Source: Candidatus Omnitrophota bacterium
Lineage (GTDB): Bacteria > Omnitrophota > Gorgyraeia > Aquiviventales > Aquiviventaceae
Assembly (NCBI GenBank): GCA_016206685.1
Contig: JACQRB010000056.1
Span: forward strand, 1-48,329
Direction of reading: 5' to 3'
Length of the DNA stretch: 48,329 nucleotides
Shown piece after piece: positions 9,087-23,652 of the stretch. The position numbers were made by a program, and so were the translations under genes. How positions within the stretch are numbered: the stretch's first letter is position 1; each line of letters opens with the position of its first letter. Under the pieces are notes generated by a model. It made no database searches, had not been told where the DNA came from, and saw nothing but the letters and a program-made list of their open reading frames with translations.

Positions 9087-9782
9087 ATGGCCCTGCGTAA
9101 AACCCGCTTCATGTTCGTCTATCCCCTGGCGCTCGGGTTATTCCTGAGTATGCATCAGGATGCCCGTGCCATCCACCTCGGCATCTGGTTTGTCCTGGCT
9201 GGAGAGGCGTTGCGGCTCTGGGCCGCCGGCTACGTCGGGCATCGAAAAGTGAATCGCACCGGAGACCAGCCGGGCGCTCCGAAGATCGGCACCCTGATCA
9301 CCGCGGGCCCCTACGCCTATGTGCGCCATCCCCTGTACGTGGGGACGTTCCTGATCGGCCTGGGGTTTTGTCTCATCGCCAGGAATCCGTGGTTCGTCCT
9401 GGGAGCGTTGGTATTTTTCCTGGCCATCTATCCCAAGAAGGCTGCCGAGGAAGAGAGCGTGATCAGGGGGGAATGGGGGGAGCAGTTCGACGCGTACCGG
9501 CAGCGCGTGCGCGCCTGGTTCCCGCGGCTTCGTCCCCATCCCGATCGGGTCGGGCGATGGAGCTGGCAGGGGATCTACGCCAGCCAGGAGGCGAAGACGG
9601 TGGTGTGGCTCATCGTCGTGCTCACGGCCCTCTACCTGCGTGGAGAATGGTTTTTCGAGCACGAACCCTTAAATTGGAAGCACGCCCTGTTCCTGAGCGG
9701 GGCGGTGGGGCTGATCGGGTTTGATCTGGGCACGGAATGGATGCGCCTCGGCAGGCGCGCGGCCACGGGAGGGTCGGTCTAG
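9087..9782 (+). CDS. Isoprenylcysteine carboxylmethyltransferase (ICMT/PEMT, LmtA-like) family membrane methyltransferase
   Basis: GEALRLWAAGY, LITAGPYAYVRHPLYVG, EE..I...G..F..YR..V motifs. Confidence 0.85.
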   Translation: MALRKTRFMFVYPLALGLFLSMHQDARAIHLGIWFVLAGEALRLWAAGYVGHRKVNRTGDQPGAPKIGTLITAGPYAYVRHPLYVGTFLIGLGFCLIARNPWFVLGALVFFLAIYPKKAAEEESVIRGEWGEQFDAYRQRVRAWFPRLRPHPDRVGRWSWQGIYASQEAKTVVWLIVVLTALYLRGEWFFEHEPLNWKHALFLSGAVGLIGFDLGTEWMRLGRRAATGGSV

Positions 9783-13696: not shown

Positions 13697-13951
13697 ATGG
13701 CTACGACACTTCCACGGTTGAATGTTACGTTTGAGCGCCCTACCTACGAGGCGTTGCAGCACATTGCCGATGCCCAGAAACTCAGTCTCTCTGGATTGGT
13801 AGCTCGGCTCGTTGAGAGCGCTCTTGATCTTGCTGAGGACTTGTCGCTTAGTCAGATCGCTGAGGAGAGGCTTGAAGGCTTCCGTCGTGACGATGCTCTT
13901 TCTTCCAAGGAACTGCTTAGATGGAAAGCAGCGCGTGGCAAGAAAAAGTAA
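13697..13951 (+). CDS. Ribbon-helix-helix (CopG-like) antitoxin
   Basis: RLNVTFE beta strand then two helices; acidic C-terminus; GGGAGG RBS; upstream of RelE-like gene. Confidence 0.8.
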   Translation: MATTLPRLNVTFERPTYEALQHIADAQKLSLSGLVARLVESALDLAEDLSLSQIAEERLEGFRRDDALSSKELLRWKAARGKKK

Positions 13952-14280
13952 CAGAAGTATACACAGTTCTCTGGCATCATGAGATCAGACAGGATTTCGA
14001 AGAACTTTCAGAAAGTCTTTCAGAAAAGATTGTCAACGCCGTTCAACATCGCCTCTCATTAGCTCCCACCCTTGGAGAACCGTTAAAGGGAACACGCAGA
14101 CTAGTGTGGCGGCTTCGGTTTTCCGATTATCGAATTTTGTACACAGTGAACAGGAGATCGCGTGAAGTGTGGATTTTGTCGGTCAAACATCGAAGTGTGG
14201 TGTACCAGAATAACCATGTGCAAGAGTTAGTAAAGTGGGCGGTAGCACTTCAAGCGACTCATGAACAATCTGGAGAGTAG
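13921..14280 (+). CDS. RelE/ParE family toxin
   Basis: YTVLWH..., GEPLKG, WRLRFSDYRILY, ILSVKHRSVVY. Confidence 0.88.
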   Translation: MESSAWQEKVTEVYTVLWHHEIRQDFEELSESLSEKIVNAVQHRLSLAPTLGEPLKGTRRLVWRLRFSDYRILYTVNRRSREVWILSVKHRSVVYQNNHVQELVKWAVALQATHEQSGE

Positions 14281-14292
14281 CCTATTTTTTTG

Positions 14293-14322
14293 TTGACTTA
14301 TGCTTGAGCGCTTAAGTATAAT
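14293..14322 (+). promoter_or_regulatory. Transposase promoter (TTGACT-18-TATAAT) with palindrome in spacer
   Basis: -10 is 6 nt from ATG; spacer holds TGCTTGAGCGCTTAAGTA (14301-14318). Confidence 0.75.
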
Positions 14323-14328
14323 AGTCTC

Positions 14329-15219
14329 ATGAATCTAATGAGTGAAGATCAGACACGAGCTTACCTTGAAGAACTCCGCTGGCCGAACGGCGCACAATGC
14401 CCGTTTTGCACGCTTCACCAGGTTACAAAGCTCAACGGCAAACGGCCTGGCTTTTATCAATGCAATCGCTGCCGCAAGCAGTTTACTGTGCGAACAGGCT
14501 CGATCTTTGAGCGGTCGCACGTCCCGCTCTCCAAGTGGCTCCAGGCCGTCCACCTGCTATGCGCCAGTAAGAAGGGCATGAGCGCCTTGCAGGTGTCGCG
14601 GATGCTTGAGGTCAGCTACAAGACAGCCTGGTTTCTGTGCCACCGGATTCGAGAGGCGATGCGCTCACCTGGGGGCTTGCTGACGGGTACAGTCGAGGTT
14701 GATGAAACCTACGTTGGTGGGAAGGAAAAGAACGCGCAGCGAGGACGCAGCACCCGCAAGAAAACGCCGCTCGTCGCCGTCATTCAGCGCAACGGCAAGG
14801 TACGGACTCAGGTCGTGCGTTCGGTGTCTGCCGCCAACCTGATGCGTGTCCTCAAAGAGAATGTTGACGTGGAATCAACCCTGATGACAGATGATTTCAT
14901 GTCGTACCGCCACGTCGATGAAGTGTTCTATCAACATGAAGCGGTGGTTCACAGCAAGAAGGAATACGCGCGGGGCAATGTCCATGTGAACAACTGCGAG
15001 TCCTTCTTTGCCTTGCTCAAGCGTGGCCTCATGGGGAGCTTCCACCATGTCTCGCGTAAGCACCTGGGGCGTTACTCCAATGAGTTTGCGTTTCGGTGGG
15101 ATACACGCAAGATCACAGACGCCGAACGGGTAGAGGCGGCTTTACGGCTTGCAGAGGGGAAGAGACTGATGTATTGTGATCTCACCAATGGGGAAACGGC
15201 CAAAGCGCAAGCCAACTAA
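14329..15219 (+). CDS. IS1595-family (ISXO2-like) DDE transposase
   Basis: RWPNG-CPFC...CNRC zinc ribbon, KKGMSALQ...SYKTAW HTH, VEVDETYVGG, LMTDD, NNCESFFALLKRG, HHVSRKHLGRYSNEFAFR; no stops or frameshifts. Confidence 0.97.
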   Translation: MNLMSEDQTRAYLEELRWPNGAQCPFCTLHQVTKLNGKRPGFYQCNRCRKQFTVRTGSIFERSHVPLSKWLQAVHLLCASKKGMSALQVSRMLEVSYKTAWFLCHRIREAMRSPGGLLTGTVEVDETYVGGKEKNAQRGRSTRKKTPLVAVIQRNGKVRTQVVRSVSAANLMRVLKENVDVESTLMTDDFMSYRHVDEVFYQHEAVVHSKKEYARGNVHVNNCESFFALLKRGLMGSFHHVSRKHLGRYSNEFAFRWDTRKITDAERVEAALRLAEGKRLMYCDLTNGETAKAQAN

Positions 15220-15319
15220 GAAGGCTGAACGGTTCTCGCTGTACCCGCTCTCGCCTGAACAAGTCCTCAAGAAGTTGCTCTCCTTGCCTCCTGCCAAGCG
15301 TAAGAAATCCTCCAAGTAG
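15188..15319 (+). CDS. Possible 43-aa basic protein overlapping the transposase 3' end
   Basis: Manual translation MGKRPKRKPTKKAERFSLYPLSPEQVLKKLLSLPPAKRKKSSK; ends just before the right TIR. Confidence 0.5.
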   Translation: MGKRPKRKPTKKAERFSLYPLSPEQVLKKLLSLPPAKRKKSSK

Positions 15320-15694: not shown

Positions 15695-16563
15695 GCTACT
15701 ACCGGTTGCTCGGACTGGACCGCGAGCCCTTTTCGACCAATCCGGACCCGGCGTTTTTCTACCAGTCGCCGCAATACCGCGACACGCTGGCCAACCTCAT
15801 CATCGAGTTCCGGCTCAAGCGGGGCTTGAGCGTGGTCCTGGGCGACATCGGCGTCGGCAAGACCACGCTCGGGCGCAAGCTCATCCAGATGCTGCGGGAG
15901 CGCTCCAACTTTCTCTTCCACATGATCCTGGATCCCACCTATCCGTCTGAGGAGCTCTTCTTCCATGACCTCACCCGCACGCTGGGGATCGAGCTGCCCT
16001 GGCAGACCCCGACGCTGGTTGACTACCGGGATGCGCTGGAGCGGTTCCTGTTCCGCAAGGCCCTGCAGGAGGAGCAGACGATCGTGCTCATCATTGACGA
16101 AGCCCACAAGCTCAACGAGCTTTCCCTGGAAGTGTTGCGCCTCCTCCTGAACTATGAGACCAACGACGCCAAGCTCCTGCAGCTGGTGCTCTTGGGGCAA
16201 ATGGAGCTGCTGCCCCTCCTCATGGGCCTGCCCAACGTCGTCGATCGCATCAGCTTGAAGGGCACCTTGACACCGCTCACCTTGCTTGAAACCCACGAGT
16301 TGATCGCCTTCCGCCTGGAGGAGGCGGGCTACCGCTCGCACATCCCTCTGTTCAGCCCGGAGGCGGTTGAGACCATCTGCGCGTATACGGAAGGCTATCC
16401 CCGCCGGATCGCGATGGTGTGCCACCAGGCGTTGCGCCAGCTGGTCATGCGCCGGGAGCGATCGGTTAATGAGGGCTTGGTGGAGGAGCTGATTCAACAC
16501 GAGATGGAGTCGGGATGGGATCCGCCAAGAAGGGCAAGGAAACTCCAGCCGAGCAGTTGCTGA
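15691..16563 (+). CDS. ExeA/GspA-family AAA ATPase
   Basis: GLDREPFSTNPDP, Walker A GDIGVGKTT, Walker B IIDEAH, KLLQLVLLGQ, GYPRRI; ATGA coupling to MerR gene. Confidence 0.92.
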   Translation: MSYYRLLGLDREPFSTNPDPAFFYQSPQYRDTLANLIIEFRLKRGLSVVLGDIGVGKTTLGRKLIQMLRERSNFLFHMILDPTYPSEELFFHDLTRTLGIELPWQTPTLVDYRDALERFLFRKALQEEQTIVLIIDEAHKLNELSLEVLRLLLNYETNDAKLLQLVLLGQMELLPLLMGLPNVVDRISLKGTLTPLTLLETHELIAFRLEEAGYRSHIPLFSPEAVETICAYTEGYPRRIAMVCHQALRQLVMRRERSVNEGLVEELIQHEMESGWDPPRRARKLQPSSC

Positions 16564-17192
16564 GGATGATCGAAGGTCCGGCCGGCGCCGCCAACGTACC
16601 ACACGCGTCGGCCTCGCCATCGCTCAGGCAGCTGTGGGCCGGCTTGCAGGAGCTGCCGGGACGCCTCTTGTCTCGGCTGCGACCCGCCCGACGGGAGACC
16701 GACGCGTTCCTGTGGAACCTGACGATGGCGCAGCGGCTCCTCTGGGGCGTGCTGCTGGCGTTGGGGGCGTATGTCGCGTTCGATTTGGTCGTCGTGCAGC
16801 CCAGGCCGAAGCTTGGGCGCAGGGTCGCGACCGCCACTGTGGAGCCGGCGACGGAGTCCCCGGGAGCCTCCGGCAGTCCCGCGAGTGCGCTCAAGCCGCT
16901 TGCCGAGTATCTGGCCGTCGTGCAACAGGCCAGTCCGTTCGGCGGGGCCGCCTCGATCATCGCCGCCCCCGCCGCGCAAAGCACGAAACAGCGGCTTGCG
17001 GAGCTGGCACAGGGGCTGGTGGTGGTCGGGATCGACCGCAGCGCCAATCCAGAGGCGATCATCGAAGATACGACGCAAAAGCGCACGTATTTCATTAAGG
17101 TGGGTGATGAGCTCAACGGGATGGCCGTTAAGGACATCAGTGTCAAGGGGGTCATCGTCAGCTATGAAGGGGAAGAGCTCCTCGTCAAGTAA
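16515..17192 (+). CDS. GspC/PilP-like membrane-anchored protein
   Basis: One TM then LVVVGI...PEAIIED...YFIKVGD...VKDISVKGVIVSYEGE (T2SS-C HR domain-like). Confidence 0.7.
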   Translation: MGSAKKGKETPAEQLLRMIEGPAGAANVPHASASPSLRQLWAGLQELPGRLLSRLRPARRETDAFLWNLTMAQRLLWGVLLALGAYVAFDLVVVQPRPKLGRRVATATVEPATESPGASGSPASALKPLAEYLAVVQQASPFGGAASIIAAPAAQSTKQRLAELAQGLVVVGIDRSANPEAIIEDTTQKRTYFIKVGDELNGMAVKDISVKGVIVSYEGEELLVK

Positions 17193-17221
17193 GTGGGGCC
17201 TGTCGTGTCGCGCACCCGCTG

Positions 17222-17329
17222 GGCAGCGGGTGACGCGGAGCGGGGGCCCCCGCCGACCGCAGCCGACGACGCGCGCCGGCTGCGTCGGGGCGCGGACGGC
17301 GGGGTCGCGCAGCGGCAGGACCCGCTGCC
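17222..17329. repeat. Structured dispersed repeat, copy B
   Basis: 10-bp IR GGCAGCGGGT/ACCCGCTGCC; blocks 17228-17244, 17261-17269 and 17294-17319 are exact reverse complements of 7823-7839, 7792-7800 and 7740-7765; direct repeat ACCCGCTG at 17214-17221 and 17320-17327. Confidence 0.85.
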
Positions 17330-19023
17330 TCCTGATGGCCGTCTGGCTCGTCGGCGGCGGTGTCTGGTTGAGCCTGCCGGCGGCGGCCCGCTCGGAGGAT
17401 GCGCTCGAGGATGCCCTCCTGGAGACGGCCTCGGCCGAGCCCCCTACCACGTACCTGCGGGGCATGGAGGAGCGGGTGTCGCTGGATCTGCGCTCGACCG
17501 AGGCGACCGATGCGCTGAAATACCTGGCGACCAAAGGCGGCTTGAACATCGCGATCAGCAAGAACGTCGCGGGCCGCGTGAACCTGTTCCTGACGGATGT
17601 GCCGATCCGCGACGTCTTCGACTTGGTCCTGCGCAGCAACGAGCTCGCCTACGACAAGCAGGGCAACATCTACAACATCATGACCGAGGCCGAGTATCGC
17701 GCGCTCTACGGCAAGCGCTTCGCGGACCTGCGGCGCGTGGAGACCTTCCGCCTGAAGTACGCCATCCCAGAGCAGGCGTTCAACCTCTTGGATGCGCTCA
17801 AGAGCGAGATCGGCCGCTTGCTGGTTGACGAGGACTCCGGGACCGTCTCCGTCATGGATACGCCGGAGCGGTTGCGCCAGATGGAAGAGGCCCTCGGGAC
17901 CCTGGAGCAGGGCAACACCGTGCGCGTGTTCGATCTGCGCTACGCCAAGGCCAAGGACGTGGAGGAGCAATTGAAGGACCAGCTCGAATCCAAGAAGCTG
18001 GGCTTCATCAAGGCCGACGAGCGCAGCAACCAGGTGATCGTGCAGACCCTGCCCAACCGGATGAAGGACATCGAGCAGCTGGTCAAGGCCCTGGACCGCA
18101 AGACCCGCGAGGTGCTCATTGATGGCCGGATCGTGAAGGTCAGCCTGGTCAACGGCGCCGATACCGGCATCGACTGGGACAAGATATTCACGAACCTGAA
18201 ATTCCACGGGATTGACACGACGAACAGCTTCCGCACCACGACGACGGGCACGGCGCCGTCCGAGGTCCCCGGCGTCACCAAGATCCGGATTCCGGACATC
18301 AACCTGCCGGGAGTGAAAACCAAGTCCGGCACGGACCACGAACTGAAGTTGGGCCAGTTGGCGTTCGGGACCGTCGCGCGCGACGGCTATGAGCTGTTTC
18401 GCTACCTCCAGACTCTCGGCAAAACGAAGATCATGTCCAATCCGCGCATCCTGGTCACGGAGAACCAGGAAGCCCGCATCCATGTGGGCACGCGCGAGGC
18501 CTACGTGACGACGACCACGACGACCGGCCAGACCACGACGACCACCGCCGAAGAGGTCCAGTTCATCGACGTGGGAATCCAGCTCGTGGTGACCCCGAAG
18601 ATCAACGAGGATGGGTTCGTCACCATGAAGATCAAGCCGGAGATCTCCAGCGTGATCCGCACGCTCACCACGCCCAGCGGCAACGCGATTCCCATCGTGG
18701 ATACCTCCACCGCGGAGACGAACGTCATGGTGCAAGACGGGGCGACGGTGATCATCGGGGGCTTGCGCAAGGATGAGAAGAAAGTCACCGATAAGCAACT
18801 CCCGTATCTGGGTCGTATTCCGCTGATCGGGCCGGCCTTGTTCCGGGACCGCGACCAGGATGACGAGACCTCGGAGCTGGTGGTCTTCATCACCCCCCAT
18901 ATCGTCGCCGGCGATACCCTGGTGACGGGGGATGAGGAGGCGTTGGGTGGAGGCATCAAGCCGTACCGGGAGTATCAACCCCTGCTGGAAAAGCGCGCGC
19001 GCGTGGAGCCGCTGAAACCGTAG
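17230..19023 (+). CDS. Secretin (GspD/PilQ family); start codon uncertain
   Basis: N-domains (FRLKYA, FDLRYA, ADERSNQVIV), REVLIDGRIV, MSNPRILVTENQEARIHVG, DVGIQLVVTP, GATVIIGGL, LPYLGRIPLIG, ELVVFITPHIV. Confidence 0.93.
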   Translation: MTRSGGPRRPQPTTRAGCVGARTAGSRSGRTRCLLMAVWLVGGGVWLSLPAAARSEDALEDALLETASAEPPTTYLRGMEERVSLDLRSTEATDALKYLATKGGLNIAISKNVAGRVNLFLTDVPIRDVFDLVLRSNELAYDKQGNIYNIMTEAEYRALYGKRFADLRRVETFRLKYAIPEQAFNLLDALKSEIGRLLVDEDSGTVSVMDTPERLRQMEEALGTLEQGNTVRVFDLRYAKAKDVEEQLKDQLESKKLGFIKADERSNQVIVQTLPNRMKDIEQLVKALDRKTREVLIDGRIVKVSLVNGADTGIDWDKIFTNLKFHGIDTTNSFRTTTTGTAPSEVPGVTKIRIPDINLPGVKTKSGTDHELKLGQLAFGTVARDGYELFRYLQTLGKTKIMSNPRILVTENQEARIHVGTREAYVTTTTTTGQTTTTTAEEVQFIDVGIQLVVTPKINEDGFVTMKIKPEISSVIRTLTTPSGNAIPIVDTSTAETNVMVQDGATVIIGGLRKDEKKVTDKQLPYLGRIPLIGPALFRDRDQDDETSELVVFITPHIVAGDTLVTGDEEALGGGIKPYREYQPLLEKRARVEPLKP

Positions 19024-19025
19024 CC

Positions 19026-20108
19026 ATGCCTGAGCCAGCCCTCGTGCCAGGATCCCAGAAACCCGGCGGGCCGCTGGGAAGTGGGACCATGTGGCTCGTG
19101 GCCCTGCTGGTCATCGCCAGCGGGGGGGCGACCTACTTTGGCTGGCGCGCCCAACAACTGACCACCACCTTGCACCAGTTGACCCATCAGCGGGAGGGGG
19201 TTGAAGAGGCCCAGACGACGCTGCAAACTCGCTGGCAGACGATCCAGACGCAGTACGACGAGCTCACCAAGACCCACCAGGCGCTGAGCCAGGATCGTGA
19301 CAACCTCATCGCCCAAGTGGCGGGCACGAAGGAAACCTTGGAGCGCCAACGCGAGGAAACCGCTCGGCACGAGTCGGCGGCCCGGCAGACCGCGGCTGAG
19401 CGGGATCTGTTGGCGTCCCTGCTCAAGAAGGCCGCCCAGGAGCACCAGGCGTTGAGCGGCCAGGTGGGGCCGCTCCAGGAACAGCTCCAAGAGCTCGAGC
19501 GCGTCTACGACCAAGCTCTTCAGGAGCGGGATGCCCTCAAAGGCGACCTGGCCAAGGCGCTCCAGAAAACCCATGAGAAGCAGCTCAAACAAGACCTGGC
19601 CTCGCAGCGCAAGGAGCGCCAGGAGCTGGAGCGGCAGTTGCGCTCGGCCCAGCGAGAGATGGGAGAAATCCAGGGGCGCGAAACGCGCGTGAAGAAACAA
19701 TTGAAGTCGCTCCAAGAGGATTACGCGAAGGTGGCCGCCGACCGCAATCGGCTCAGGCGGCAGAACACCATGATTCCCAGCGACGTCAACCAACTGGCGC
19801 GGGAGCACCAGCGTCTGTTGAAGGAGACGGCCGACATGCACTACAACCTGGGGGTGCTCTTCAGCGAGCAAAAGCAGTATGCCCAGGCGGCGGCGGAGTT
19901 TGGCAAAGTCATCGAGCTGCGTCCCGATGACGCGGATACCTACTACAACCTCGGGGTGATCTATGCCGAGCATCTCCCGGACCGGGAGCGGGCGATCGCG
20001 CATTTCCGCCGGTATCTCAAGATCAATCCGCGGGCCCGAGATGCCAGTTGGGTCAAGCAGTACATCGCGTCCTGGCAAGCCTATGAGGCGAAAGAACGCC
20101 TGGAGTAG
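19026..20108 (+). CDS. Membrane-anchored coiled-coil protein with C-terminal TPRs
   Basis: N-terminal TM, Q/E/L heptads, ADMHYNLGV...ADTYYNLGVIY...AIAHFRRYL. Confidence 0.88.
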   Translation: MPEPALVPGSQKPGGPLGSGTMWLVALLVIASGGATYFGWRAQQLTTTLHQLTHQREGVEEAQTTLQTRWQTIQTQYDELTKTHQALSQDRDNLIAQVAGTKETLERQREETARHESAARQTAAERDLLASLLKKAAQEHQALSGQVGPLQEQLQELERVYDQALQERDALKGDLAKALQKTHEKQLKQDLASQRKERQELERQLRSAQREMGEIQGRETRVKKQLKSLQEDYAKVAADRNRLRRQNTMIPSDVNQLAREHQRLLKETADMHYNLGVLFSEQKQYAQAAAEFGKVIELRPDDADTYYNLGVIYAEHLPDRERAIAHFRRYLKINPRARDASWVKQYIASWQAYEAKERLE

Positions 20109-20112
20109 CGAC

Positions 20113-23100
20113 ATGAACAGCGGCACCTCCTCAGCATCTTGCGGGTTCAGAAACGGCGTGTGGGTCCGGGGATGGGTGGGCCTGATGCTGGTGCTTGGCC
20201 TGTCCGGGAGGCTCTTCGCCGATTCCCAGGACGCCCAAGGCACGTTCGAGAGCGCCTACAAACAAGGCCAGGCGCTCTACGAGCAGGGCAAGTACCAGGA
20301 AGCCACCGCCGCGTTCCAACGGGCGCTGCAGCTTATGGATCGCGATTCCTCTCATGGCGCTGCGGGGGGAGCGGCTCCTCCCCCCACGGCTGAGGAGTCC
20401 TCGGACTATCAGCAAGCCCTCAAGGAAGCTGTCGCCGTGCCAGTCCCGTCGGATGCCGTTGGGCATTCCCAGCTGACCTTCCTGGCGACCCAGATTGAAC
20501 AGTTCAAGACGGCCCTCGAGGTGAAAGAGGACGAGCTGCGACGATTCGCCCAGACGCTCGCCGAACGCGACCAGCAGGTGCAGCAAGCCGGCCGCGAGCG
20601 GGACCGGCAGGCCGCGAGGGTTTCTGAGCTGACAGGCAAGGTCCAAGCGATTCAAAGCGATAACCAGAATCTGCTGAAAGAGCGGGAGAGCCTCAAGCAG
20701 ACCAGCCATGAGCTTGAAGAGCGCGTGTCGGGCCTGCAAGAGGACCTGGCCGGGCTCAAGGGCCAATGGAGCACGGAGCTGGAGCAGACCAAACGCACGC
20801 TCGCGCAACGCGAAGCTGAGCTGGCGCTGGCCAGACAGGCGGACGTCAAACTCCAAGCGCAAACCGACCAACTCCGGACCCGCGACCTCCAACTGGCGCA
20901 ACTGCAGGAGCAGCTGCGCACCCTTCAGGACACGTACGCCGCGACCACGCGCGAGGCCGACGCGCTTCGGACGAACCTCTCGCCCATCACGGGCGAGTTC
21001 GAGCGGATGAAGCAAGCCTACGCGTCCGACCGGGAGGCGTTGAAACAGCTCACCAACGACCACGATCAACTGCAGGCCGAGCGCAACCAGTTGAAGGACA
21101 GTCTGCGCGTCGCGCAGCAGGCGAATGCGCAGCTCACCGATGACCTGGTGGGGGCGCGCTCCACGGCGAGCCAGCTTGAGGGGCAACTCGCGAAGCTGAA
21201 AAACGAGCTGGCGGGCCGTCAGCAAGACATGATGCGCACCCAGGACACGATGACGAAATCGGAAGGGCGCTTCACGCAGGCGACCCAAGAGCTTAAAACG
21301 CTCCGGGAGTCCAATGCGTCATTGCAGGCGCAACTCCGCCAGACCACGGATGAAGTCCTCGAGAGCCGGACGAAGCTGAAGGTCCAAGAAGAGCAGACCC
21401 AGCAGGCCCGCCAGGCCTTGACCCAAGCGCAGGAACGTCTCTCGAAGGTGAGTGTCGAGCGCGAGCAATCGCAGCAACAACTCAGCGCCCTGCAACAGGA
21501 GCAGGCCCAGACGCGGAATCAACTGGCTGGCCTGGCCCAGGAGACGGCGGCGGCGAAGGAGCGGGAGCGCAAGGCCACCGACCAACTGCAGTACGTGCGG
21601 GATCTGAACGCGCAACTGGCGAAGACCGGCGAACAGCAGGCGGCCAAATCCATGGAATCGGCCGCTCGTCTGCAGGCGGCGGATAGAGACCACCAGGCGC
21701 TGGCGAAGGAACTGGACCAGGCCAAACGCGCCAACCAACAGCTCGAAAAGCATCTGAAAACCGCCCAGGACGAGGCCACGCAGACCCGGGAGGGCTTTCG
21801 CAAGGAGCTGGACCAGGCCAGACAACTGCTCGGCAGCCGCGAAGAAGAGCTCGCCTCGGCGAAAGAGCAGGCCGCCCAGGCGCAGACGGCCGTGACTACC
21901 CTTGACCGGCAGCGGGCGGTCCTCGAGGGGCGCCTGACGTCGAAAGAGGAGGAGGCGCGGCGACTGACCCAGACCCTGGCCCAACACGATCAACAGCTCC
22001 AGCAGGTCTCACAGGAGCGGGATCAGCGGGACGTCAAGCTCGCTGAACTGGGTGCGCAGCTCCAAGCCGGCCGCAAGGATCAACAGACGACACTCGCCCA
22101 AGCGGAGGGCGCCAAGCGCGCCAACCGGGAGCTGGAGGAGCGTCTGCGGCTTGCGCAAAACGAGTTCACGCAGGCTCAAAGCCGGTGGAGTCGGGAGCTT
22201 GAGCAGGTGAATCGCACGCTCGCCAAGCGCGAGGCGGACCTGGCGACGGCCACGAAACAGCTCGAACAGGCGCAGGCCGACACCAGCACCCTGAAACAAC
22301 AGCAAGCCGTCCTCGAGCACCGCCTGCAGGAGCGCTCGACGGAGACACAGGAGCTGGAGCGCAAGATGGCCGCGCTGACCCAGCAGCTGCAACAAACCCA
22401 AAGCGACCTCACCGCCAATCAGCAGCAGGTGGCGGCGTTGCAGGAACGAGTCAATGAGCGCACGCAGCAACTCACAGGCCAGGGGGAAGAGCTCGCCCAG
22501 TCGCAGGCGCAGCTGCGCGACCTGGAACGCGCCTACGCGACCTCCAAGACCGAAGGGGAGCAGATGCGCACCACGCTGGCTTCGAAAGAAGAAGAGCTGC
22601 GGCGGCTCAGTCTCACCATGACGCAGGACCAGCAAGCGCTTCGGCAGGCGACCCAAGAAGCTACCGAGGCGCAGTTCCAGCGCAAGCATCTGGAAGAGCA
22701 GGTTCGGATCGCCAAAGAAACCCAGGGGGGATCGGAAGAGGAGTTGAAGTCCACGCGCCAGCAAGCCGCACGCCTGCAGGATCAACTGGTGGCCGCGCAG
22801 TCCGACCGGGACCGGTTCCGCAGCGGGATCGATCAGCGGGAGACGCAGCTGGGGCAACTGCAGGCCGAGTTGAGCGGCGTCCGACGGGAACTGGCCGGCG
22901 CGCAAGCCGAATCCAAGCAGGTCGAGCTCGGTGCCCAGGAGCGGGAGCAGCAGCTCGTCGTGGATCGCGAAGGCTACAAGTGGCAGGTTGATCGCCTGCA
23001 GCGCGAGCTGGAGCGCTCGCAGGCCGCTTACCGGCAACTGACCCAGGAGCGGGAGCAGCAGCTCAATGCCATCGCCCAGCGCACGGTCGGCAAGGAAGAT

Positions 23101-23652
23101 TACGACCGGGCTCAAGAAGCCTTAGCCGACGGCCGGACTCAGCTGGCCCGGCTCAACGCGGAGTTGACGGAGCGGGACCGCGTCATTGCGCAGCTTCGCA
23201 GCGATCTGGCCCAGCGGGAACGCGATGCCAAAGCCAGCCAACAAGCCCTGGGCAAGGCCCAGGAGCTGCTTCAGCTCTCGCCGTCGCTGCCGACGTCCGC
23301 CTCCGCATGGCCGAGGATGGGAGCGGGGCCTGGAGCCGGGACGGCGACGCCCGGCGCGGGATCCGCACAAGCGGTGGATGCGGCTGCTGAGGGAACCCAG
23401 GTGAGAGTCTATCGAGCGAACGAGGAGCACGGGTTCGTGGTCATCTCGGTCGAGGGGATGGCCAATCCTCAACCCGGCGATACCGTGCTGTTGTACGTCG
23501 GCAACCGGCCGGCCGCGGAAGTGCAGTTGGGGGACATTGACGACGACCGCATGGCGGTGGCGTATATCAAACGTAAGCTGGATCCCCACGCGACGATTCG
23601 CAAGGGCGACTTGGTCCTGGCGCGGCATTTTACCAAGCCCCAGGAAGAGTAA
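20113..23652 (+). CDS. Giant exported coiled-coil protein (1179 aa) with N-terminal TPR and C-terminal beta domain
   Basis: GGAG RBS; signal-like segment; TPR AYKQGQALYEQGKYQEATAAFQRAL; ~900 aa nearly Pro-free Q/E/L/A/R; C-terminal VYRANEEHGFVVIS...IRKGDLV. Confidence 0.88.
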   Translation: MNSGTSSASCGFRNGVWVRGWVGLMLVLGLSGRLFADSQDAQGTFESAYKQGQALYEQGKYQEATAAFQRALQLMDRDSSHGAAGGAAPPPTAEESSDYQQALKEAVAVPVPSDAVGHSQLTFLATQIEQFKTALEVKEDELRRFAQTLAERDQQVQQAGRERDRQAARVSELTGKVQAIQSDNQNLLKERESLKQTSHELEERVSGLQEDLAGLKGQWSTELEQTKRTLAQREAELALARQADVKLQAQTDQLRTRDLQLAQLQEQLRTLQDTYAATTREADALRTNLSPITGEFERMKQAYASDREALKQLTNDHDQLQAERNQLKDSLRVAQQANAQLTDDLVGARSTASQLEGQLAKLKNELAGRQQDMMRTQDTMTKSEGRFTQATQELKTLRESNASLQAQLRQTTDEVLESRTKLKVQEEQTQQARQALTQAQERLSKVSVEREQSQQQLSALQQEQAQTRNQLAGLAQETAAAKERERKATDQLQYVRDLNAQLAKTGEQQAAKSMESAARLQAADRDHQALAKELDQAKRANQQLEKHLKTAQDEATQTREGFRKELDQARQLLGSREEELASAKEQAAQAQTAVTTLDRQRAVLEGRLTSKEEEARRLTQTLAQHDQQLQQVSQERDQRDVKLAELGAQLQAGRKDQQTTLAQAEGAKRANRELEERLRLAQNEFTQAQSRWSRELEQVNRTLAKREADLATATKQLEQAQADTSTLKQQQAVLEHRLQERSTETQELERKMAALTQQLQQTQSDLTANQQQVAALQERVNERTQQLTGQGEELAQSQAQLRDLERAYATSKTEGEQMRTTLASKEEELRRLSLTMTQDQQALRQATQEATEAQFQRKHLEEQVRIAKETQGGSEEELKSTRQQAARLQDQLVAAQSDRDRFRSGIDQRETQLGQLQAELSGVRRELAGAQAESKQVELGAQEREQQLVVDREGYKWQVDRLQRELERSQAAYRQLTQEREQQLNAIAQRTVGKEDYDRAQEALADGRTQLARLNAELTERDRVIAQLRSDLAQRERDAKASQQALGKAQELLQLSPSLPTSASAWPRMGAGPGAGTATPGAGSAQAVDAAAEGTQVRVYRANEEHGFVVISVEGMANPQPGDTVLLYVGNRPAAEVQLGDIDDDRMAVAYIKRKLDPHATIRKGDLVLARHFTKPQEE

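Follow-up and report, generated by a model that had tools for sequence, protein, structure and literature searches.

Does a GC-rich hairpin near the 5′ end of a secretin gene interrupt that gene, or is it translated as part of the protein's leader? The question is raised by the window, by which we mean the whole 48,329-nt contig (JACQRB010000056.1) of a Candidatus Omnitrophota bacterium analyzed here, in which a hairpin repeat of about 110 nt (copy B) lies shortly after the stop codon of the gene that precedes the secretin (Table 1). An initial annotation held that the repeat interrupts the secretin 5′ end and puts a start codon right after the upstream stop out of frame. We think it probable, from the comparison of orthologous sequences, that a mobile hairpin repeat was recently inserted in frame in the secretin leader and tolerated there, and that the secretin starts upstream of the repeat, at ATG 17164. 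Most likely this pilus or secretion locus has an intact secretin, for which no excision, splicing, DNA switch, intron or recoding needs to be invoked.

Start codon and leader of the secretin gene

The public protein record of the secretin (P0001) matches PF00263 (1.5e-47) and PF03958 (2.5e-23), and its STN match (PF07660) reaches 28.0 bits, slightly below the cut-off of 28.4. With the Secretin C-domain, the N-domains and a predicted signal peptide, the gene has the features of type II secretion and type IV pilus secretins. In comparison with L061, an element-free relative described below, the ratio of nonsynonymous to synonymous substitution (dN/dS) is 0.165 (554 codons), and the gene is under purifying selection. 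Because it has these domains, no internal stops and this dN/dS value, the gene is functional by the usual signs.

The upstream gene, termed gspC-like in the initial annotation, matched no Pfam family. Its GC content at third codon positions (GC3) is coding-like, and its C-terminal ..YEGEE..L.. is kept in eight orthologous loci and in L061. The open frame of the secretin extends far upstream, and ATG 17164, which lies within the overlap of the two genes and 58 nt 5′ of the element, is in frame with the element present. The window sequence at the overlap (agctATGAAGGGGAAGAG) matches the start context of the orthologs. We compared the eight orthologous loci (67–75% identity), all of which have the same upstream gene. 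Five of them start at the same ATGAAGGCGA(A/G)G ATG, in a context reading ..tATGAAGGCGA(A/G)G.. that gives YEGEE in the upstream frame and MKAK in the secretin frame. L033 has an overlapping ATG three codons downstream of this common start, and in L034 and L036 the secretin starts at, or just past, the upstream stop. L035 and L038 have no in-frame start, or none nearby, other than the overlapping ATG. A basic n-region followed by a hydrophobic core is present in all eight ortholog leaders. Read from ATG 17164, the window protein begins with MKGKSSSSSKWGLSCRAPA, continues with 36 element-encoded residues and goes on with LLMAVWLVGGGVWLSLPAAARSED; in the protein alignment it carries an insertion of 36–39 residues relative to all eight orthologs, precisely at the element.

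The element is missing from the eight orthologs and also from two closer relatives. The first, L061, was found by scanning metagenome contigs, and is ~90% identical to the window in nucleotide sequence and syntenic with it over the ATPase gene, the upstream gene, the secretin and the tetratricopeptide repeat (TPR) gene. Its overlap is identical to that of the window and reads MKGKSSSSSSRRARRALDVWLAAWLVGGGVWLSLPAPAHA, and its leader begins MKGKSSSSSSRRARRALDVWLAAWLVGGG. The distance from the upstream stop to TGGCTCGTCGGC is 41 nt in L061 vs. 152 nt in the window, a net difference of 111 nt or 37 codons, and the 111 extra bases carry no stop in the secretin frame. The second relative, known from protein P0002 (90% identity), has the N-terminus MTSSRRARWALDVWLAAW.. 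/ MTSSRRARWALDVW... Public gene callers start the L061 protein (P0003, 580 aa), which begins MKGKSSSSSSRRARRALDVW.., at MKGK, and start the window secretin (P0001, 562 aa) at ATG 17335, so the annotation of the N-terminus is inconsistent between near relatives. Both the public call for the window and the initial annotation, which listed only GTG 17230 and ATG 17335 as in-frame starts, missed the conserved overlapping start, which is a lesson for the annotation of GC-rich metagenome-assembled genomes (MAGs).

A GC-rich hairpin repeat of ~110 nt would have entered within the first 20 codons of the secretin after the split from the 90%-identical relatives, its net contribution of 37 stop-free codons preserving the frame from ATG 17164. 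Ribosomes would read from 17164 through the hairpin, and the long leader would still work in export, with an n-region lengthened from about 15–20 to about 57 residues and with the hydrophobic core and the AAA motif unchanged. Read from ATG 17164, the leader runs for 57 residues up to and into the hydrophobic core, with 13 K/R and no D/E among them. Cleavage of the signal peptide is predicted after AAA, the placement of cleavage sites following the –3/–1 rule. The insertion would be tolerated because the leader is removed on export and the mature secretin is left unaltered.

Several points weigh against this reading. An insertion is in frame by chance one time in three, and frame retention alone proves little; stop-free frames are equally unremarkable in this repeat, with 111 of 174 frames open across 29 copies (five of six in copy B). 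The 29 nt to the left of the element align poorly and have lost the RRARR motif of the relatives. A new ATG, at 17335, directly follows the element, which fits a shift of the start with relaxed constraint upstream of it, and the public gene call starts there. A hairpin of about –80 to –100 kcal/mol could impede ribosomes, and an n-region of 57 residues is unusually long for a Sec leader.

These points lead to a rival explanation that accepts the same insertion and supposes that ATG 17335 arose later and has taken over as the start in use (MAVWLVGGGVWLSLPAAA/RS), with the element and its flanks turned into an intercistronic hairpin. This hairpin might alter how stable the mRNA is, or how much of one protein is made relative to the other, as repetitive extragenic palindromic (REP) or enterobacterial repetitive intergenic consensus (ERIC) elements inside operons are said to do. 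We consider a moved start possible but doubtful. It would agree with the public call, with the absence of ATG 17335 from L061 and its position adjoining the element, with the divergence of the former n-region codons (17193–17220) far beyond that of their surroundings, and with the fact that most copies of the repeat are intergenic, just past stop codons. A protein started at 17335, however, has no basic n-region, no GGAGG-like Shine–Dalgarno sequence was seen in the 15 nt before that codon, and a scan of 16900–17600 found neither a sigma-70-like promoter nor an intrinsic terminator. Moreover, constraint from the overlapping upstream gene has kept ATG 17164 and its context as they were, and any ribosome starting there reads in frame into the secretin. 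The two starts are compatible, the mature protein being identical from either, and ATG 17335 may be a lineage-specific second start alongside the conserved one.

It is also conceivable that the repeat was misjoined here from metagenome reads and that the true genome has an empty site. The family does break the assembly elsewhere, with contigs C62 and C20 carrying copies, and C23 and C43 partial matches, at their ends. We regard an artefact as very improbable, however, since the element stands inside a 48-kb contig, unique and syntenic sequence borders it on either side, its immediate flanks differ from the relatives in a manner unlike a simple chimera, and the net length is an exact multiple of three.

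Table 1 Coordinates of the secretin start region, of the repeat copies in the window, and of the copies of the same repeat in a MiaB-like gene
Feature	Position	Strand	Description
Upstream gene (gspC-like in the initial annotation)	16515..17192	+	ORF (open reading frame); C-terminus ..VSYEGEELLVK; stop TAA 17190-17192
Secretin gene	17164..19023	+	ATG 17164, 619 codons plus stop; STN, Secretin_N and Secretin domains; frame open
Overlap of the two genes	17164..17192	+	29 nt; tATGAAGGGGAAGAG = YEGEE in upstream frame, MKGK in secretin frame
Left flank of copy B	17193..17220	+	WGLSCRAPA where relatives have RRARRAL; poorly alignable
Flank 8-mer	17214..17221	+	ACCCGCTG; local hairpin with 17224-17231
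Copy B	17221..17330	+	~110-nt hairpin repeat, 85% GC; in frame in signal-peptide n-region; encodes GQRVTRSGGPRRPQPTTRAGCVGARTAGSRSGRTRC
5′ terminal arm of copy B	17222..17231	+	GGCAGCGGGT; includes GTG 17230; pairs with 17320-17329
3′ terminal arm of copy B	17320..17329	+	ACCCGCTGCC; GGACCCG core recurs in the family; pairing with covariation; holds second copy of the 8-mer
Hydrophobic core and PAAA motif of predicted signal peptide	17326..17388	+	CLLMAVWLVGGGVWLSL; hydropathy windows; h-region conserved in L061 and P0002
ATG after the element	17335..17337	+	Public start (P0001); L061 has GAC GTC TGG
Copy A, same family	7729..7845	-	Between VTT-domain gene and COX3-like gene (Pfam of neighbours)
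MiaB-site copies	L131 (G000 C64:269-385); L124:912-1043; L126:2146-2277; L125:2317-2442	reversed in G023	Profile match

The direct repeat, the folds and the proposed removal of 106 nt

Part of what the initial annotation described around copy B is borne out. The 8-bp direct repeat ACCCGCTG is present at 17214–17221 and 17320–17327, the 5′ arm CAGCGGGT (17224–17231) is complementary to both of its copies, and the segment 17222–17327 is 106 nt long, so that its deletion moves GTG 17193 (frame 0) into the secretin frame (frame 1). Two alternative folds also exist in silico, the flank hairpin of copy B (–100.9 kcal/mol) outscoring the canonical fold of the element (–91.6 kcal/mol). The fold of the 153-nt region at –100.9 kcal/mol has z = –2.27 against dinucleotide shuffles, four of 200 of which equal it. 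The canonical closing pairs are present in the minimum free energy (MFE) structures of 20 of the 28 anchorable copies (out of 29), with the proviso that the anchors misregister some variants. The model built on these features places the true start at GTG 17193 or 17205 and has expression depend on removal of the 106 nt by DNA excision, slippage, an intron or bypass. In the model's favor, replication slippage is known to act on direct repeats that flank a strong hairpin.

We nevertheless find this model highly improbable. The proposed starts are not conserved, and L061 has no GTG at the place of 17193. The initial annotation itself took the lack of the N-terminus reconstructed by the deletion (MGPVVSRTRCLL) in element-free orthologs as grounds for refutation, and that N-terminus is indeed absent from both of the 90%-identical, element-free relatives. 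Removal of 106 nt would put the conserved ATG 17164 out of frame. The frame-0 ORF (17193–17828) has GC contents of 0.92, 0.65 and 0.51 at the first, second and third codon positions, a noncoding pattern. A cmscan search of 17000–17500 against Rfam (E ≤ 1) gave only a spurious match to snoR9 (14.3 bits vs. a gathering score of 90), and no match to a self-splicing intron, ribozyme or known structured RNA. Three options had been put forward for the repeat, of which the tolerated insertion resembling a transposable element of the miniature inverted-repeat type (MITE) was essentially right, whereas the excisable switch and the intron-like or recoding RNA find no support.

The pair of 8-mers does not represent a target-site duplication, because its 3′ member is part of a terminal arm of the element and no matching 5′ flank accompanies other copies of the repeat. 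The arm core GGACCCG is present in nearly all of the 29 copies aligned below, the bases beyond it varying and covarying with the 5′ arm, and the exact ACCCGCTG is common to a subfamily frequent in this MAG. The 8-mer is not enriched over the whole window, where it occurs four times vs. 2.5 expected, a number reached by 26 of 100 shuffles, and three of the four occurrences fall within 114 nt at copy B. In an alignment by eye, L061 has GGGCGCTG opposite the flank 8-mer, and the CGCTG part of the match may be older than the insertion.

The borders of the insertion cannot be read from the empty site, a few dozen bases beside the element failing to align with L061; for the inserted DNA, the right border is known to within a few bases, and the uncertainty of the left one may reach about 28 nt. 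The left flank was considered as a partial second copy of the element and rejected, as the family profile matches 17193–17220 only at E 0.63 and on the reverse strand. By eye, 17207–17221 matches the 3′ arm with a 9-nt gap, and 17193–17206 pairs with 17312–17325 in the MFE structure.

The repeat family and its copies in a MiaB-like gene

Copy B belongs to a real repeat family, as its designation in the initial annotation implied. The window's own assembly (0.97 Mb, 65 contigs, 63% complete) contains 13 copies, 12 of them near full length, as found with BLAST and an nhmmer profile. The profile was built from 10 of the MAG copies with copy B left out, and it matches copy B over 17221–17330 at E 7.7e-23. 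Of 24 other genomes from the same taxonomic family, each standing for a sister genus, 16 gave matches at E ≤ 1e-6, and of 16 genomes from other families of the class none did. Genome G002 has at least 21 (21/21 scored; 117 first-look candidates). Judged by these genomes, the repeat is confined to a single family within Candidatus Omnitrophota.

The same repeat is found in frame in the middle of a second gene, which encodes a MiaB-like methylthiotransferase (UPF0004, Radical_SAM, TRAM). It is present there in four genera, in genomes G000, G010 and G007 and, reversed, in G023, at a site between ..DFPQLLRL.D.. and RIRFTTSHP. In G000 (C64:276-386) and G010 (C36:934-1039), GC3 is coding-like on both sides of the element, and both sides belong to one open frame. 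We surveyed 23 MiaB loci from relatives, 22 of which have both flanking motifs. The spacing between the motifs is 18 nt in seven loci, 48–213 nt in 14, and 0 nt in one, the last being a probable alignment oddity; the family profile matches four of the 22. The site is in frame in all 22 loci, and the inserts whose translations were read are stop-free. The MiaB-site elements are evidently translated, because the frame is kept and no alternative start could rescue a protein interrupted in mid-enzyme. These copies argue for read-through in the secretin and against intron-like or bypass ideas, since removal before translation would require neither an intact frame nor stop-free inserts.

Other repeats occupy the same MiaB site. 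A different repeat of ~200 nt is found in three genera, at L136:2260-2469 (G018), G019 C45:6337-6531 and G012 C50:1444-1625, with 96% identity between G018 and G019; the G012 copy runs opposite to the gene, and that genome has three more copies elsewhere. The short inserts (48–63 nt) of L132, L130, L138 and L143 (G015, G014, G016 and G011) are near-perfect palindromes, and those of G014, G016 and G011 share AATGGGGACAG..CCCCATT-like arms. This has the look of a place where hairpins insert repeatedly.

We aligned 29 copies of the family, from nine genera. The asymmetric inner core is conserved, and the outermost 6–14 bp vary yet remain complementary. RNAalifold on these copies gave 32 pairs, 14 of them with compensatory changes. 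One aligned column pair is CG in 15 copies and GC in 11, and columns 9–14 and 127–132 have three to six pair types each, the ends always pairing and their sequences differing between copies. Copy A of the window belongs to a subfamily whose outer stem is different from that of copy B and still complementary. Two copies in G007 (L102:98-222 and L099:548-672) are near-identical, flanks included, and a T-to-G difference in the 5′ arm is matched by an A-to-C difference in the 3′ arm, which is either a clean compensatory change or a hairpin-templated correction.

The repeat behaves like a mobile DNA hairpin, with many copies in both orientations. Where copies lie just 3′ of stop codons, the element's own TGA is sometimes the stop, and the orientation relative to the gene ending alongside is the same in about five cases and opposite in nine, on a crude GC3-based reading. 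A strand-specific RNA function is disfavored by the occurrence of both orientations and by the reversed MiaB copy, and a DNA-level element is favored; one column is G-U in 18 of the 29 copies. A flanking direct repeat of at least 4 nt was found in only one of 28 scanned copies, with the limit that copy borders were set by stem extension and short target duplications could escape. That copy (L100:1488-1613, G010 C19) has the 8-bp repeat ACACAAGC and an unusually long outer stem, and may sit inside a further inverted-repeat element or be joined to one.

Two candidates for the source of mobility were rejected. A REP-associated tyrosine (RAYT/Y1) transposase does not correlate with the repeat: Y1_Tnp is present in 31 of 41 genomes with or without the element, six element-bearing genomes have no Y1_Tnp, many element-free genomes have it, and no copy adjoins the Y1_Tnp gene of G000. 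The IS1595 element of the window is no better as a parent, its ends being, by eye, unrelated and AT-rich. No parent insertion sequence (IS) with matching ends was seen, no systematic search of IS ends having been made.

Two further copies in G000 adjoin coding sequence. At C55:9228-9348 (L011), a coding-like ORF (8328-9353) crosses a reversed copy and stops 3 nt past it, so that its last ~40 residues are element-encoded, and a second coding-like ORF restarts directly after the element; from a reading of their sequences alone, the former is uroporphyrinogen-III synthase-like and the latter HemB-type-like. At C6:1296-1405, a second putative signal peptide has a diverged copy just 5′ of its hydrophobic core (..WLRVTRCL/LAGFVLWLLCLSVVTAAEP), a junction that echoes ..GRTRC/LLMAVWLV.. 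in the secretin. The end of the element, read outward, encodes R-x-T-R-C in either orientation.

The remaining observations concern the neighborhood of the secretin in the window. Just 5′ of the ExeA-like AAA ATPase gene in the secretin locus is a stretch of lower GC (13921–15300) with an IS1595-family transposase gene (14329–15219; PF12762, PF12760) and a small ORF (13921–14280), and upstream of about 15333 L061 no longer aligns to the window. Downstream of the secretin are a gene for a TPR/coiled-coil protein (19026–20108) and a 1229-residue ORF (19963–23652) rich in internal repeats (families D1–D3).

Comparison with known repeats and inserts

Bacterial MITEs (Correia/NEMIS, ERIC, BOX/RUP) are described in one article as small, noncoding, multi-copy sequences with terminal inverted repeats and the potential to form hairpins, mostly intergenic but in some cases within genes, where they give in-frame fusions (PMC10969869). 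The Omnitrophota repeat is like them in its size of ~100–130 nt, its many copies and the lack of any coding capacity of its own. It differs from them in having no general target-site duplication (one of 28 copies), and in that its terminal repeats covary between copies, the inner asymmetric core being conserved instead. REPs are given as sequences of 20–40 bp with a GTAG or CGTC head (PMC3733652). The likeness to REP/REPIN-RAYT systems is that of GC-rich extragenic palindromes without target duplications, often past stop codons and in both orientations; however, the unit here is about 110 nt, no GTAG/CGTC head was seen in it, and it is not tied to Y1_Tnp. Structurally, the repeat is a palindrome like MITEs or REPs, yet it falls outside the strict definition of either.

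Translational bypass elements (T4 gene 60; mitochondrial 'byps') and self-splicing introns resemble copy B as hairpin inserts in a coding region flanked by a short direct repeat. Bypass elements and introns need not keep the frame or avoid stops, whereas here the frame of the conserved start is kept, the MiaB loci are in frame without exception, and Rfam gave no match.

The closest known system in behavior is the Rickettsia palindromic element (RPE). RPEs are described as multi-copy palindromes of ~100–150 bp that stand in frame in unrelated genes, to whose products they add a stretch of peptide without destroying the protein (PMC10969869, citing Ogata et al. 2000, 2002). The Omnitrophota repeat is like them in standing in frame, as a palindrome, in two conserved genes, the secretin leader and the MiaB-like enzyme, with element-free orthologs for both. 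RPEs are AT-rich, whereas this element is 85% GC, mostly intergenic and variable in its outer stem, and its host phylum is a different one.

We found no paper on palindromic repeats in Omnitrophota in the open-access literature. It is a tentative suggestion, and one we would not press, that the repeat belongs to an undescribed class of "protein-coding palindromes", which would combine a conserved asymmetric core, covarying stems, in-frame colonization in either orientation, a marked preference of site and insertion targeted to hairpins or palindromes without a known transposase, and which may supply signal peptides with basic n-regions (..R-T-R-C). To our knowledge, most descriptions of palindromes inserted in frame in essential genes concern Rickettsia. 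Another example, unrelated to these, coming from free-living or epibiotic nanobacteria with small genomes and including a recurrent hot spot in MiaB, would allow the choice of permissive sites, and the contribution of such insertions to protein evolution, to be asked about beyond the RPEs.

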